From Nitrospirota bacterium (GTDB lineage: Bacteria > Nitrospirota > Thermodesulfovibrionia > UBA6902): 64,000 bases of DNA. Below, piece by piece: positions 42,001-51,000 of the stretch. The DNA lies in contig JACQZF010000002.1 of NCBI GenBank assembly GCA_016213945.1, forward strand, positions 12,675-76,674, in the 5' to 3' direction. The position numbers are program-made. The first letter of the stretch is position 1. Each line of letters begins with the position of its first letter.

Positions 42001-45000
42001 AGTAATCGGGCATCCAGAATTTACAAAAGACTGTCATTCCCGCTCAACATACTGCCAACAGTAGGTGCTTTAGGCACGGGAATGACAGTTCAGCATTTAT
42101 GGATCAAAGGCAAGAGGTGATGCTTCTCCTGATTCCGATATTGATGTCATGATTGAAATCGAAGATTATAATCCTTCAACGGAGGCTGAGATCGATGACC
42201 TTGTTTTTGAAATAAACCTTGCGCATGATTGTTTCATCTCAACAATTATCTTTGGCAGAAAAGAACTTGAAGACGGGCCTCTCGGTAAATCACCCATATA
42301 TAAGGCGATAGAAAAAGAGGGGATAAAGGTTTGACCGTAGAAGAAAAGAAACGCGAACTTTCATATGAGCCATATTCCTCTTCAAAGCATAGCGGTGTTT
42401 TAAGCTACTTCAACAAACGCTTCATAAGAGAGGGTGTCTTCCATGAGGATATTGGACGTTCAATAAATAAGGCATTTGAACTAAGACAGCGTGGAGATTA
42501 CCGGGAATATATTGATCTAAGCTATGAACAGGTAGAGCCGTTCATAAAAGAGGCCGAAGTTTTTATCGAGACGGTGAAGAACCATCTGAATCTATAAAGT
42601 GATTACTTGCTTATTATTAATGTTCCGCTGCTTATCGTGAGTGTCCCCGCACTAATTATCATATCCCCTTTAATTGTAGTCGTTCCTGTAGCAGATGAAT
42701 AGTTGCAGCCATATCCACCTGTTAGCGTGATTGATAGGTCCCGATCAAGATTGAGATTTTCGGTAGTTACTGCATCCTGGCTCTTAATAGTCTCCCCGTC
42801 ATTCGCTGCATTGTAAGCGGCTTGAAGTGAAGAATAATACACGGGGGCTGTACCCAGGATCATTACCAGGGGAGTTTGAGGGCAATTATCAGCATTATCT
42901 AATCTGCCGTCTCCATCTGAATCAATGTTTGCAGGATTAATTTGTTTTTGGTACTCCTGAAGATTTGTCAGGCCATCTCCATCTTTATCAATGTTGGCGT
43001 CAGAGGGATCATTGGGATTTAAACCGTAAAACAATTCAAAAAAATCCGGCATTCCATCCGTATCGGTATCTTTATTGGTGAATCCAGAATATGCGGCTCG
43101 TGTTCCACTATCATTCTTAAGCTCAGCACTAAATTGAATATTTTCTAAATGGAAATTAACAGTAAGGCTAAAACCACTAAGAGAACTATTTGCAGCTATA
43201 TAATAATTCTGGTTTATTGCCATTGCATTTAAGAATGTAGTCGTATTAGTCCCATCCCATACTGTGCCGACCCATCCGGATGGAAGTGGTGAGCCTGTAG
43301 TAGTAACCATTTGAGGAAAATACAGAAATACTTTATAAAGTGATATATTAGAAGATGTGTTATAAAAAGTATAATTATATTTCCACATTCCACCTCCTAA
43401 ATCTGTTTCTTTATATAAGACGTGTATGCGTGGAATACCGCAGTTTAACACTCCTTCATCAACTAAACCATTACAGTTATTATCGATGCTATCACATGCT
43501 TCAACCGCCGCGGGGTGTATGACTGAATTATAATCATCACAATCTGTGCTGGCAGTATAACCATCGTTGTCAGCGTCATTGTCGTAGACATTACATATTC
43601 CATCACCGTCTATATCGAACGAATTGAGATTGGCATGAGTAGTTGTGCCAGAAACCGCAATCATACCACCCTGATTAGTTTTTAATTCGGCAACAAAAGA
43701 GATATCCCCTATTTTATGGTCAATAGTAAAACTAAACCCGCTAAGTGAACTCTTGGGAGCTATATAATAATTCTGGTTTATTGCCATTGTATTTGAAAAT
43801 GTGTTTGTAACAGTACCGTTCCAAACTGTGCCAAACCATCCGGCAGGAAGTGGTGAGCCTGTAGTAGTAACCATTTGAGGAAAATACAGAAATACTTTAT
43901 AAAGATATGTATCAGCAGATGTATTGCTGAATATATAATCATACCGCCATAATCCACCGACAAACTCTGTTTCATGATATAGTAAAATTACCTTTGTATT
44001 AGCAGGAGCCTCGTCTATTTGTCCATTACAGTTATTATCTACCCCATCACAGACTTCAACTGCCCCGGGGTGAATTGCCGGATCATTGTCATCGCAATCA
44101 TTGCCGCCTGCCGAGACCGATATATATCCGTCTCCATCTTTATCATTATCACACACGTCACCTATGCCGTCCCCGTCTGTATCTGCCTGTGTTGGATTAG
44201 AAACATTAGGGCAGTTGTCAGTGTTATTTAGAGTATAACCGGTAGGTTGTGAGCATGCCTTTATTGAATTTACCGGGTCTCCATATCCATCATAATCTGC
44301 ATCGCGGTAATACGTTTTAATACTTTCGCGACATGCTTTATAAACATTCGCATAAACCCCGTACCCCAAACCCAGGCTGGCAGAGCCGCCGTATCCCGGT
44401 GCGCCTCCTCCGTCCATATAATCATAGCTGCCCCATGCAGCCACGAAATCCCCGGATGAATTCATCGCGATCCCCGGTCTCTCTGACCAGAGTTTATTGC
44501 TCTGCTCTCTATTTATTATTTCTTCTGTATCAAGCATTATTGAGTTGTAATTATTCACGCGAAACTCAGCGCCCAAAGGATTCCCGGATGAATTATACTG
44601 CTTTGCATATATGCCATGCCCTCCGCAGTCTTGCCCATTGCTTTGCCATGCCACTGTAAATTTCCCAGAAGGATCAATCGCTACAGAAGCGCCCCACTGG
44701 TCATCCTGAGTATATGATGTATTAATATGAAATTCACCGGTTCGAGGACTTCCATAGAGGTTATAAAGGCGTCCGAATATCCCCCCGCCGTCTTCTCCCT
44801 GATACTGACTTCCCCAAACGATGGCAATATCTCCATTATTATTAATAGCTGGGTAAGGAACCCATTGATCATAAGTGGTGCCTACATATGTATTGACAGT
44901 AAACTCGCTGGTAATCGGGTTTCCGTTACTATCGAATATCCTGGCAACTACATCGTCCCATAATCCAGATGAGTATTGGCTGCGATAACATCTCCATTCA

Positions 45001-48000: not shown

Positions 48001-51000
48001 CTATCCCCATTGCGCCACCGCTACCAACTCCGCCATTTGTTACAATTGCTGTAAACTGGCATGTTGATCCGTCTTCTAAGCTGCCTGTACCTTCAATCGC
48101 TGCGGTGCCTGCAGAAATCGTTGCGGTTGTAATTGACGTACTTACCAAAACCATGCCGTTAAACGAATAGGTCAGCGAACTTGTTCCCAGTGAAGCCTCA
48201 TTAACATTCAATGTCAAATCTGCCCTTACAAGCGGTGGGAAGTTATAACCAGTACCTAAAGCTGTTTTAGACGCGAGTGCGGCTGTAACCTCTGCTCCGG
48301 TTATAGGATCATCAGGAGATCCTAAATTGTTTAAGTGAGCTTGTCCTAAAGGTGTTGGGTCGCTCTTTAATCTGATTGTTACTATTCCATTGGTTATATC
48401 TATATCCAGATTCATATCGTCGACAACTCCATCGAGACCTGAACCATCTGCTTTGTAATTCCCATCTGTAAAAGGATTGATATTAGAAGCATTGTAAGCC
48501 GCAAGTATTGGGGCCAACATAGTTTCGATATCAGTTATAGCCTTATCGAGGTTGGGTTGAGTTATCGAATGGCTGCCTGGGTCGTTATACGCGTCTGCCG
48601 GATTATTCACTCCTGATGCCGCGGCAACTGCCAAATTGGTCAGGGGATTAATATTGCCTATTCCAGAACCCATTGAAACGGAGTAGAGAGTGGTAGTCAC
48701 TCCGCCGACTGTCCGTTCCGCCTTCAGATAAAACGGCGGTGTAAGTCCGGTTACATCGATTGAATAATTCCCATTAGCATCTATTGGATACGGCCCGTGC
48801 TCTGTGCCATTTGCTTCTTTAAGGTATACATTACCGCCGGACATAGGCGCTCCGGTTGCCGCAACGCCTGTGAGGGTTGAAACTGCTACCGGATTGTTAT
48901 TGTTGTCATTAGTGGCAGGTGGGGGTATATTAGCAGTAGTATCACTCTTACCTGTGTCAGATAGATTACTATTGCTTCCGCTGTCACTGCCCCCTCCTCC
49001 ACCGCCACCGCCGCCACACGCAACAAGAGAGAGAGCAAGTAATGCTGCAAATAATACGGATACTAAGTTTTCGAACCACCCGAATTTAATTATTCCTTTT
49101 TTCACGAGACTTCTGTGCCTCCTTTTTTCCTGCGCGTGTCGGACTGCGTTTCCCCAAACTGCCCTGCTGTTTTTTGATTAGAAAATAATCGTAAACAGGA
49201 TTTGATTATTGATTGAGCAAGAAATATGCCCAAAAGGAGAGAGGATGGACCTGGCAACCTTTCCCATTAACAAACAAATAGTTAGAATAAATTCTTGAAA
49301 TTATCAGTCAGATGGGAAAGTGTGCCTCGGCACAGTTTTTATTGTGACAGGCCTGTGCCATGTTACAGTTTGAGGGAAAGCGAAAAGTTTCCGGTATCTA
49401 CTCTAATCAACGTCTTATTTGTTACAATGCTATACAACCAGAATGAAGATAATGTCCGACATCTTTTTTATCAAAAAGGCATTAGCCCTCGCTGCAAAGG
49501 GGAAAGGGCGCACAAGCCCTAACCCGATGGTAGGAGCTGTTGTCGTTAAAGGCGGGAAAATCATTGCCGCTGATTATCACAGAAAGGCAGGCACTCCTCA
49601 TGCTGAAGTTCTTGCGTTAAAAAAGGCCGGGGAAAGGGCCAAGGGGGCGGCGCTTTACATAAATCTTGAACCCTGCTGCCACACTGATAAAAGGACCCCG
49701 CCCTGCATAAAAACGATTATCCAGGCCGGGATCAGGAAAGTTGTCGTTGCAATGATTGACCCGAATCCGAAAGTGTCCGGCATGGGTTTGAAAGAGCTTC
49801 AGAAGGCAGGCATTGAGACCGTGTCAGGCGTTATGGAGGACGAGGCAAAGAGGCTGAATGAGGCCTTCATAAAATACATTACAAAAAAAGGGCCTTTTGT
49901 GGTCCTGAAGATCGCGCAGAGCCTTGACGGCAAGATCGCAACCGACAAAGGCGAGTCCAGATGGATTACCGGTGAAAAGGCAAGAGAGCAAGTCCATAAA
50001 TTGAGAAACGAAGTCGATGCCGTACTCGTTGGGATCGGCACGGTAAAAAAAGATGACCCTTCTCTTGATTGCAGAACCAGGGGAGGAAGAAATCCATTCA
50101 GAATTATCGTTGACAGTAAATTGCAAATACCGCTTGATGCGAAAGTGCTGAAGCATGATGACGGTAAAACAATAATCGCAACAATCCCCCCTCGCCCCCC
50201 TTTTTTAAAGGGGGGGATTATGAACTCCCCCTTTGAAAAAGGGGGATGCAGGGGGATTTTTTCAAAAAAAGCATGGACAGATTATCAGAAAAAGATTAAT
50301 CTGCTGACTGACATGGGCGTTCGTGTTTTGACTGTCAAAGAAAATGCCGGGAAGGTTGATCTGAAAACTCTCATGAAAGAATTAGGCAGGCTCGATATTA
50401 CAAGCGTAATGATAGAAGGAGGCTCCTCAATAAACGCCTCGGCGCTTTCAAGCGGGATAGTGGACAAGGTGATGATCTTTTCCGCTCCCAAAATAATCGG
50501 CGGCGTTGATTCAATCCCCTCGATAGGCGGCAAGTCTCCGGCCCTCCTGAAAAACGCGTTCAATTTTAAAAATCTCCAGGTGAAAAAAGTCGGCGAAGAT
50601 GTTCTGCTGGAAGGGTATCTTTGATTACTCCGTCTTTAAATCCTTTCTAAGTCTCCTGTCCGCCTTGATGACCTCCTCAACGTCGTCCCCGCTGATCTCC
50701 CACGAATAATCATCCTGCGAATTTCGCCTGAGCTTTATCTTCGCCGGTTTATCGGGTCTTATCTCCTGTATTTCCTGCACTTGCTTGAAGACGGGTTCTT
50801 CCTGTCTGCCTCCGGAATCAGTGCAGGCTTGTGCAGAGAATAATAAAATGATGATAAATAGAATAGAAAATAATTTAAGTGCTGACATGTCCCCTCCTAA
50901 AAACTCTTAAACCTGTTCGTAATCGGAAAGCGCCTGTCTTTTCCAAAGGCCCTCGGGGTTATTTTTATTCCCGGCGGGGCCTGCCGCCTTTTGTATTCCG

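Follow-up and report, generated by a model that had tools for sequence, protein, structure and literature searches.

The question raised by this locus is why four neighboring genes for secreted proteins should share two domain types, one of them borne by a protein with a PEP-CTERM tail, and what the two domains might do for each other. The locus, a run of minus-strand genes designated A to D here, lies in a 64,000-nucleotide (nt) stretch of a Nitrospirota bacterium (GTDB lineage Thermodesulfovibrionia; assembly GCA_016213945.1, contig JACQZF010000002.1, positions 12,675 to 76,674 of the forward strand), which was analyzed as a whole and is called the window below. The small protein C, composed of a signal peptide, a domain here called Dom1, and a PEP-CTERM tail, represents a conserved family; its gene almost always stands beside a gene whose product ends in a second domain, Dom2, whatever the rest of that product. 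That a single PEP-CTERM family should be accompanied by the same partner domain, borne by secreted proteins that are unrelated in their other parts, leads to a testable docking hypothesis: a previously undescribed two-domain docking system in Thermodesulfovibrionia, in which a Dom2 tag would bind an exosortase-fixed Dom1 receptor, is a possibility that we put forward with marked reserve. The four consecutive minus-strand genes, as an initial annotation of the stretch had described them, were found as follows (lengths in amino acids [aa]):

42603-46181, minus strand: gene A, an open reading frame (ORF) call; 1192-aa secreted multidomain protein
46233-46658, minus strand: gene B, 141 aa; signal peptide and one Dom2 (46236-46580); 51 nt upstream of A
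46984-47523, minus strand: gene C, 179 aa; signal peptide, Dom1, and PEP-CTERM tail; start 55 nt downstream of D
47579-49105, minus strand: gene D, 508-aa lipoprotein; lipobox, linker, N-terminal domain, and two tandem Dom2 copies at the C-terminus

Judged by eye, all four products bear signal sequences and look exported, in agreement with their first description as secreted. Those of A, B, and C are ordinary signal peptides; that of C is MKLQTSLILIIIVMTLFVSATLSMA followed by AQ, and the AlphaFold2 (AF2) model of C has an N-terminal helix at residues 2-20. The start codon of D is a GTG preceded by AGGAGG, and its lipobox, LVAC (residues 27-30), leads into nine glycines and a Ser/Asn-rich linker. 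For B and C, NCBI has identical proteins under locus tags HY808_00640 and HY808_00645 of a metagenome-assembled "Nitrospirae bacterium", and D has an orthologue in L001 (45% identity, E 2e-67; L numbers denote related loci, whose flanks were scanned with the Dom1 and Dom2 profiles, and P numbers denote proteins from homologue searches). Besides the Dom2 of B, the copies of the two domains are:

47083..47451, minus strand: Dom1 of C, residues 25-147; BLASTP to A, E 2e-31 and 6e-31
43635..44009, minus strand: Dom1 copy a of A, residues 726-850; Dom1 profile (alignment A1), E 3e-51
43074..43445, minus strand: Dom1 copy b of A, residues 914-1037; Dom1 profile (alignment A1), E 8e-51
47927..48259, minus strand: Dom2 copy a of D; Dom2 profile (alignment A2), E 3e-38; BLASTP to B, E 5e-8
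47585..47920, minus strand: Dom2 copy b of D, reaching the C-terminus; Dom2 profile (alignment A2), E 4e-41; BLASTP to B, E 3e-11

BLASTP and profiles thus returned the distribution first annotated, with one domain twice in the 1192-aa protein and once in the PEP-CTERM protein and the other once in the 141-aa protein and twice in tandem in the lipoprotein; a profile search of all six-frame ORFs of the window placed Dom1 only in A (twice) and C and Dom2 only in B and D (twice). In composition-adjusted BLASTP, residues 25-147 of C matched residues 727-847 of A at 48% identity (E 6e-31) and residues 912-1035 at 44% (E 2e-31), and residues 28-139 of B matched residues 396-507 of D at 37% (E 3e-11) and residues 273-355 with an E of 5e-8. 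Smith-Waterman scores compared with 1000 shuffles of one partner per pair gave z values of 42-60 for Dom1 pairs, 12-41 for Dom2 pairs, and about 0 for Dom1 against Dom2. Gly, Thr, Ser, and Asn are abundant in all four proteins, and the shared "domains" might on that account be no more than Thr/Gly/Ser-rich sequence of low complexity, and the four secreted proteins might be neighbors by chance. Because the composition-adjusted E values reach 2e-31 and the shuffle z values run from 12 to 60, the similarity is not one of composition; alignment and shuffles both returned homology. Invariant aromatic and glycine positions in both families count against the low-complexity explanation as well, as do the confident folds given by the structure prediction that the initial annotation had proposed (predicted local distance difference test [pLDDT] of 88 for Dom1 in the model of C and of 95.5 for Dom2 in that of B), and we regard this explanation as refuted and almost certainly wrong. 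Dom1 and Dom2 are both all-β and well folded, and there is no relationship between the two. The idea that they are diverged copies of one domain was ruled out (hhalign probability of 0.2, besides the z value near 0), and none of 231 collected proteins bears both.

The close family of C, about 20 clusters in a word-indexed search, consists throughout of proteins of 170-188 aa with a signal peptide, Dom1, and a PEP-CTERM tail. Residues Y33, E35, G41, Y45, Y47, F49, N51, S53, L59, W81, and G145 are invariant in alignment A1, the PEP-CTERM-bearing members of which are C and its 19 homologues. When 1.84 billion representatives were searched exhaustively with the profile, clusters being counted at 50% identity, Dom1 was returned in 1439 clusters at an E of <= 1e-3, 201 at <= 1e-10, and 48 at <= 1e-30, nearly all of them with the small architecture of C. 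The initial description of Dom1 as uncharacterized stands in that no Pfam or NCBIfam model matches the domain body in C or in ten distant relatives, where only the PEP-CTERM tail is recognized; it has to be qualified in that the family is a sizeable one. The sorting signal itself is the following:

46987..47064, minus strand: PEP-CTERM sorting signal of C, VAPEPVSSILFLVGGGTLAARRLLRKK; TIGR02595, 15.6 bits, with conserved columns in alignment A1

This tail combines a PEP motif, a hydrophobic helix, and a basic cluster at the extreme C-terminus, and its columns are conserved across the 20 family members. The score of C lies just under the TIGR02595 cut-off of 16 bits (E 0.021); 13 of the 20 PEP-CTERM-bearing members of A1 match at an E of <= 0.1 (best, 7.7e-4), more distant Dom1 relatives score 19.6-26.7 bits, and two homologues of C are named PEP-CTERM proteins by NCBI. 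C is accordingly of the PEP-CTERM type, as first annotated. Dom1 is modular and is paired with PEP-CTERM, with a dockerin-like tail, or with a C-terminal module: P0047, which lacks PEP-CTERM, continues from Dom1 into a dockerin-like tail, and P0062, P0065, and P0120, which lack it too, continue into MopE-like repeats and then into the C-terminal module that also ends A. The model of C is a confident β-sandwich. In Foldseek searches of the Protein Data Bank (PDB), Dom1 matched generic sandwiches, with the best target-normalized template modeling (TM) scores, 0.67-0.69, for the CBM2 chains 3ndy_E and 6qfs, and several cohesins at an E of ~1e-3 (TM 0.3-0.4). As modeled, Dom1 is a CBM2/cohesin-like β-sandwich; CBM2 structures (1exg, 3ndy_E, and 6qfs) are its best fold matches (target-normalized TM 0.55-0.69, E ~2e-4), but their identity to Dom1 is 13-17% and there is no match at the sequence level.

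Dom2 forms a small family, with 62 protein clusters collected (counted at 90% identity) and 30-70% identity among copies. The domain ends 0-4 residues from the C-terminus in most of the 62 clusters, exceptions being the first copy of tandem pairs (D, L009, L015, and L031) and RHS-type proteins, in which a C-terminal module follows Dom2; the proteins that bear it carry MopE, DUF1566, NHL, SBBP, or Ig-like domains. Pfam yielded nothing meaningful for Dom2 and no Dockerin_1 match, which bears out its initial description as uncharacterized, but six of eight copies come near NCBIfam NF041523 (post-COAP-1). That profile has 115 positions, a length close to that of Dom2, and is covered nearly whole in those six copies (best E, 3e-6; B, 18.2 bits and E 0.0025), but all scores are far below its 40-bit cut-off, and the choice-of-anchor P domain expected to precede it, a position criterion inferred from the family name only, has no match in A-D at an E of <= 0.1. 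Judged by these scores, Dom2 is a distant, below-threshold relative of post-COAP-1. The model of B has nine antiparallel strands and no helices (predicted TM score of 0.87). Foldseek found no PDB match for it at an E of <= 1e-3; the nearest, insignificant folds (TM <= 0.47) are meander barrels, namely, YceI, lipocalins, nitrobindin, the C-terminal barrel of fHbp, and avidin. At L007 (1-6483), four consecutive genes (775, 263, 648, and 160 aa) each end in Dom2, some with RCC1 repeats; a Dom1 gene was not found nearby.

The two families meet in the order of their genes. Twenty-one Dom1-PEP-CTERM loci were scanned, and a Dom2-ending neighbor is present in about 15 of the 19 informative ones (L012 and L024 were left out because of a contig edge or fragmentation). 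The Dom2-ending ORF immediately precedes the Dom1 gene, in the same orientation, in the window (D→C) and in L001, L002, L003, L009, L010, L011, L013, L015, L016, L017, L019, L020, and L022; in L021 its distance upstream is 841 nt, and in L023 it follows the Dom1 gene directly. The intergenic gaps in such pairs are 22-134 nt, and the Dom2 gene usually comes first. This conserved order, which goes beyond the initial annotation, occurs twice in the window, as D→C and, across the 51-nt gap, as B→A. The upstream products are otherwise unrelated and represent about seven independent cargo architectures: beside the lipoproteins there are RHS/Tc proteins of ~2000 aa (L003 and L017), an 842-aa protein with MopE repeats and a cohesin, a 1927-aa LamG/fn3 protein, a CARDB/MopE protein of at least 1369 aa, and a 2040-aa protein with RCC1 repeats and a thermolysin-M4 domain. 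A D-type lipoprotein gene followed by a Dom1-PEP-CTERM gene is found in at least eight genomes, often at an equivalent site beside ribD/nadE and type II secretion genes, and since these lipoprotein genes share the ribD/nadE neighborhood in four of eight, the D→C pairs are orthologous; the coordinated module suggested at first is in this respect confirmed, in that the genes form a coordinated unit with an order kept across the eight genomes. The 16 related loci from species-representative genomes all belong to Nitrospirota, several of them labeled Thermodesulfovibrionia. Viewed from Dom2, the association is looser: among the Dom2-centered loci, part of which came from a metagenome scan with a tighter alignment (A4), a Dom1 gene lies downstream in 2 of about 13 informative cases (L028 and L035), and an obligate association of Dom2 with Dom1 is refuted by L005-L008 and most of L026-L036, which have no Dom1 neighbor. 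Such an asymmetry (~15 of 19 versus 2 of ~13) would be expected for few anchors serving many cargoes.

We infer that D→C and B→A are two two-gene units that together make up a cell-surface protein module. From the domain and gene order data, it is quite possible, if a little short of evenly likely, that exosortase sorts the Dom1-PEP-CTERM protein as an anchor, to whose Dom1 the Dom2 of other proteins binds as a docking tag. C would cross the inner membrane by Sec, and an exosortase encoded elsewhere would cleave or attach it at the PEP-CTERM signal, thereby displaying Dom1 at the cell surface or in the exopolysaccharide layer. Dom2 would serve as a portable, mostly C-terminal docking tag with putative noncovalent binding to Dom1, and diverse secreted cargo, including lipoproteins, RHS/Tc proteins, a protease, and lectin-like proteins, would be held on the surface. 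D with its two Dom2 copies and A with its two Dom1 copies are bivalent and could cross-link into a network or surface layer, and B, which is Dom2 alone, could cap such a network or compete within it. D is probably a surface lipoprotein, perhaps exported through the neighboring type II secretion system, and it has an N-terminal domain similar to the "secretion domain" of a Geobacter cytochrome; both are described below. A biofilm-matrix role of the locus is conjecture. The observation made in the initial annotation is thus confirmed, and its interpretation, partly supported, is sharpened to a hypothesis of tag and anchor.

A number of findings weigh against that hypothesis. No exosortase was found among window ORFs of at least 150 aa or, by PF09721, in the annotated flanks of L001-L004 and L025. 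Three loci (L004, L014, and L018) have a Dom1-PEP-CTERM gene without a Dom2 neighbor, one protein (L027) carries Dom2 at its N-terminus, and in the one case of a distant Dom1 relative where pairing was sought (P0080 in L025), Dom2 was not found. The eight D→C pairs, being orthologous, count as one evolutionary event, which leaves about seven independent pairings. The distance matrices of paired Dom1 and Dom2 copies do correlate (Mantel r of 0.51, p of 4e-4), but neighboring genes are co-inherited anyway and such a correlation is expected without any interaction. Finally, Dom2 has the look of a small ligand-binding barrel and Dom1 that of a carbohydrate-binding module, and each may bind something else.

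This last point is the core of a rather unlikely but substantial alternative, in which the genes encode co-regulated matrix or adhesion proteins without Dom1-Dom2 contact: Dom1 would bind exopolysaccharide and Dom2 another ligand (lipid, glycan, or mineral), and adjacency would reflect an operon of jointly needed proteins together with the spread, by duplication and recombination, of a cassette made up of a Dom2-encoding 3' end and a Dom1 gene. The top Dom1 matches by TM score are indeed cellulose- and chitin-binding CBM2 modules, the folds nearest to Dom2, although insignificant, are ligand-binding meander barrels, most Dom2 proteins are encoded away from Dom1 genes, and PEP-CTERM systems correlate with exopolysaccharide loci (PMC1569441); what co-regulation leaves unexplained is the recurrence of a Dom2-ending neighbor across some seven unrelated cargo architectures and the terminal position of Dom2. 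The terminal position, on very different cargo, would be accounted for if Dom2 were a sorting or secretion tag, similar to the type IX C-terminal domain (CTD), that is read by machinery for export or attachment, for example the neighboring type II secretion system or the exosortase pathway, with the Dom1-PEP-CTERM protein as a helper or co-substrate. Type II secretion genes lie less than 10 kb away in the window, L001, L012, and L018, and the N-terminal domain of D resembles the one known in PgcA as a secretion domain, which undergoes processing during export. We consider a secretion tag improbable all the same: two tandem Dom2 copies in D and Dom2 alone in B would be odd for a secretion signal, the domain is N-terminal in L027 and followed by another module in the RHS proteins, and most loci have no secretion system in view. 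To our knowledge, no linear tag is known for type II secretion substrates.

The RHS/Tc-type genes of L003 and L017, each with a small gene directly downstream, have the usual layout of RHS toxin and immunity pairs, and a polymorphic toxin/immunity system, in which large proteins, of RHS type or otherwise, carry an effector at the C-terminus for delivery and immunity is provided by the small protein encoded downstream, has to be considered for that reason. Dom2, however, is conserved at 30-70% identity rather than polymorphic, is all-β with no enzyme signature, and in RHS proteins lies outside the shell, after Ig-like domains and before another module; the pair is also formed with lipoproteins and with a Dom2-only protein, and the "immunity" candidate bears a signal peptide and a surface-sorting PEP-CTERM signal. 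No RHS repeats were found in proteins A-D, and the toxin/immunity explanation is very improbable.

How the proposed tag and anchor would relate to known systems can be seen at three points. According to Haft et al. 2006 (PMC1569441), a PEP-CTERM gene is mostly an operon of its own, preceded by a long intergenic region. The host here is likewise an environmental Gram-negative lineage, but its PEP-CTERM gene lies 22-134 nt behind a partner gene ending in Dom2, the Dom1 body falls outside named families (the nearest, NF038129, scores ~30 bits or less against a 65-bit cut-off, mostly through the tail), and an exosortase was not seen in the window; a literature search on exosortase in Thermodesulfovibrio found nothing. 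In its logic, the proposal resembles cohesin and dockerin, in that a small β-sandwich receptor would be fixed by a C-terminal sorting signal and a terminal tag would be carried by many cargoes for few anchors, with multivalent members. The sortase-anchored cohesin ScaE of Ruminococcus flavefaciens binds the C-terminal dockerin of scaffoldins, and the Dom1 model weakly resembles cohesins. There is, however, no sequence homology (C has no Pfam match to its body, Cohesin PF00963 included), Dom2 is a ~115-aa all-β domain and not a calcium-binding helical dockerin (PF00404), and true cohesin and dockerin-like modules occur separately in Dom1/Dom2 genomes. With the type IX CTD, Dom2 shares a β-rich build of ~80-115 aa at the extreme C-terminus of diverse secreted proteins; the differences are that no NCBIfam type IX sorting-domain model matches A-D or the Dom2 copies, that the phylum is another one in which no type IX genes were seen, and that Dom2 is also found in tandem copies, by itself, and at an N-terminus.

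Environmental bacteria have many PEP-CTERM proteins, very few of which have been assigned a role, and the surface function of exosortase substrates is largely open. Should the hypothesis of tag and anchor prove true, it would account for the display of enzymes, adhesins, and RHS-type proteins in an uncultured subsurface sulfate-reducing lineage, it would provide a Gram-negative, exosortase-based analogue of cohesin-dockerin display and the first concrete role of a PEP-CTERM protein family as an anchor for other proteins, and it would supply a new tag-and-anchor pair usable for surface display. Two compact, confidently folding domains are available for the question of Dom1-Dom2 binding. If it is false, a catalogue of two unannotated domain families remains, with ~1400 Dom1 clusters and ~60 Dom2 clusters.

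Proteins D and A carry further domains:

48323..48886, minus strand: D residues 74-261, "lipoprotein cytochrome c" domain; phmmer against PDB sequences
45789..46091, minus strand: A residues 31-131, Big_5 bacterial Ig-like domain; Pfam PF13205, E 3.9e-8
44322..45779, minus strand: A residues 135-620, six or seven "(P)xVAMxxxGxFVVAW" repeats; regular expression
44010..44309, minus strand: A residues 625-724, thrombospondin type-3 (TSP3)/MopE-like Cys/Asp-rich repeats of calcium- or metal-binding type; PF11617, E 2e-21, and PF02412
43446-43634 and 42882-43070, minus strand: second and third sets of these repeats in A
42606..42875, minus strand: A residues 1103-1192, C-terminal module (...YYSSLQAAYNAANDGETIKSQ...TLTGGY...TTIKGDMIIS...); phmmer

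By their sequence matches, two features are added to the initial annotation, namely, the homology of the N-terminal domain of D and a C-terminal module of A that is common to RHS-type proteins. Residues 74-261 of D match PDB entries 9i0d and 9i0e, "Lipoprotein cytochrome c," with E values of 9.8e-25 and 1.6e-23, and the domain is kept in the upstream genes of L001, L009, L013, L015, L016, L019, and L020. In the Geobacter lipoprotein cytochrome PgcA, a "secretion domain" (residues 58-252), which undergoes processing during export, comes after a lipobox (PMC10570954). The solved 9i0d/9i0e domain may be of the same kind as this secretion domain; a literature search on 9i0d found no paper. In D, the lipobox and a flexible linker precede the ~190-aa domain (E 1e-24 to the solved one). 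PgcA has heme domains where D has Dom2 modules, and D has three cysteines in total (one in the lipobox and two in "(S/L)TCQF") and no CXXCH heme motif. Homology without a heme motif suggests an export or processing domain common to Geobacter-type cytochromes and Nitrospirota surface proteins.

In A, the repeats were matched at residues 154, 205, 379, 442, 498, and 569, with a variant near 285 seen by eye; the region (135-620) has no Pfam match and is probably β-propeller-like. The TSP3/MopE repeats, matched by sequence to thrombospondin and MopE structures, flank each Dom1. The ~90-aa C-terminal module (...YYxSLQxAYxxAxxGDTIQ...TLxGGY...TTIxG...), for which there is no Pfam model, recurs in the RHS proteins of L003 and L017 (E 1e-20 and 1e-21 by phmmer) and in P0062, P0065, and P0120, always at the extreme C-terminus; it may be another terminal sorting or anchoring element.

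On one side of the cluster lie ribD and the NAD synthetase gene, and on the other lie two blocks of type II secretion genes, split by housekeeping genes:

24671-31028, plus strand: type II secretion system, gspC-D-E-F; Pfam matches
36195-41137, plus strand: type II secretion system, pseudopilins and gspJ-K-L-(M-N); Pfam matches

Type II secretion genes also adjoin the locus in L001 and lie within 10 kb in L012 and L018, as in the window, and no secretion system was seen near most Dom1/Dom2 loci; from its position, the adjacent system is a possible export route. Its secretin, GspD (25827-28238, plus strand), has a C-terminal extension with a fervidolysin-prodomain-like domain (561-640) and a SPOR peptidoglycan-binding domain (728-799). 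A second secretin (1313-3619, minus strand), 22 kb from the first, has N0, Secretin_N, and Secretin domains and no secretion genes beside it in the window.

Upstream of the D start codon, by ~110 nt, is a sigma-54-like site, GGGCATATTTCTTGCT (49216-49231, minus strand); the motif was found 28 times in the window against 29 expected by chance, and the site is a lead only. Scans for sigma-70 promoters and terminators gave results no better than shuffles.

Elsewhere among the related loci, on the 1.15-Mb contig of L025, a gene for a secreted alkaline phosphatase without Dom2 (8409-10555) lies 15 nt upstream of the distant Dom1 gene, and small proteins of the Dom1 anchor type may partner other enzymes in other lineages. 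Within the window, a 2142-aa SpvB/TcdB/RHS-repeat protein with Ig-like, TSP3, and LamG domains (14676-21104, minus strand) has a dockerin-like C-terminus (Dockerin_1, 19.4 bits, below the cut-off), and beside it is a 408-aa ORF with an RHS core motif (21233-22459, minus strand). In L003 and L017, the close relatives of the 2142-aa protein terminate instead in Dom2 with the C-terminal module behind it, and a Dom1-PEP-CTERM gene comes next; it would appear from this that C-terminal tags are exchanged. A toxin-antitoxin-type pair of a HEPN gene (PF05168) and a small nucleotidyltransferase-like gene (41200-41924, plus strand) is located between the secretion system and A, followed by an 88-aa ORF that looks HEPN-like by eye (42331-42597, plus strand). 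The window further contains an unusually long, 311-aa ORF for an IS200-like Y1 transposase (4529-5464, minus strand) and a LarC-like nickel-insertion gene beside an AIR-carboxylase-like (LarB-type) gene (55158-57189, minus strand).

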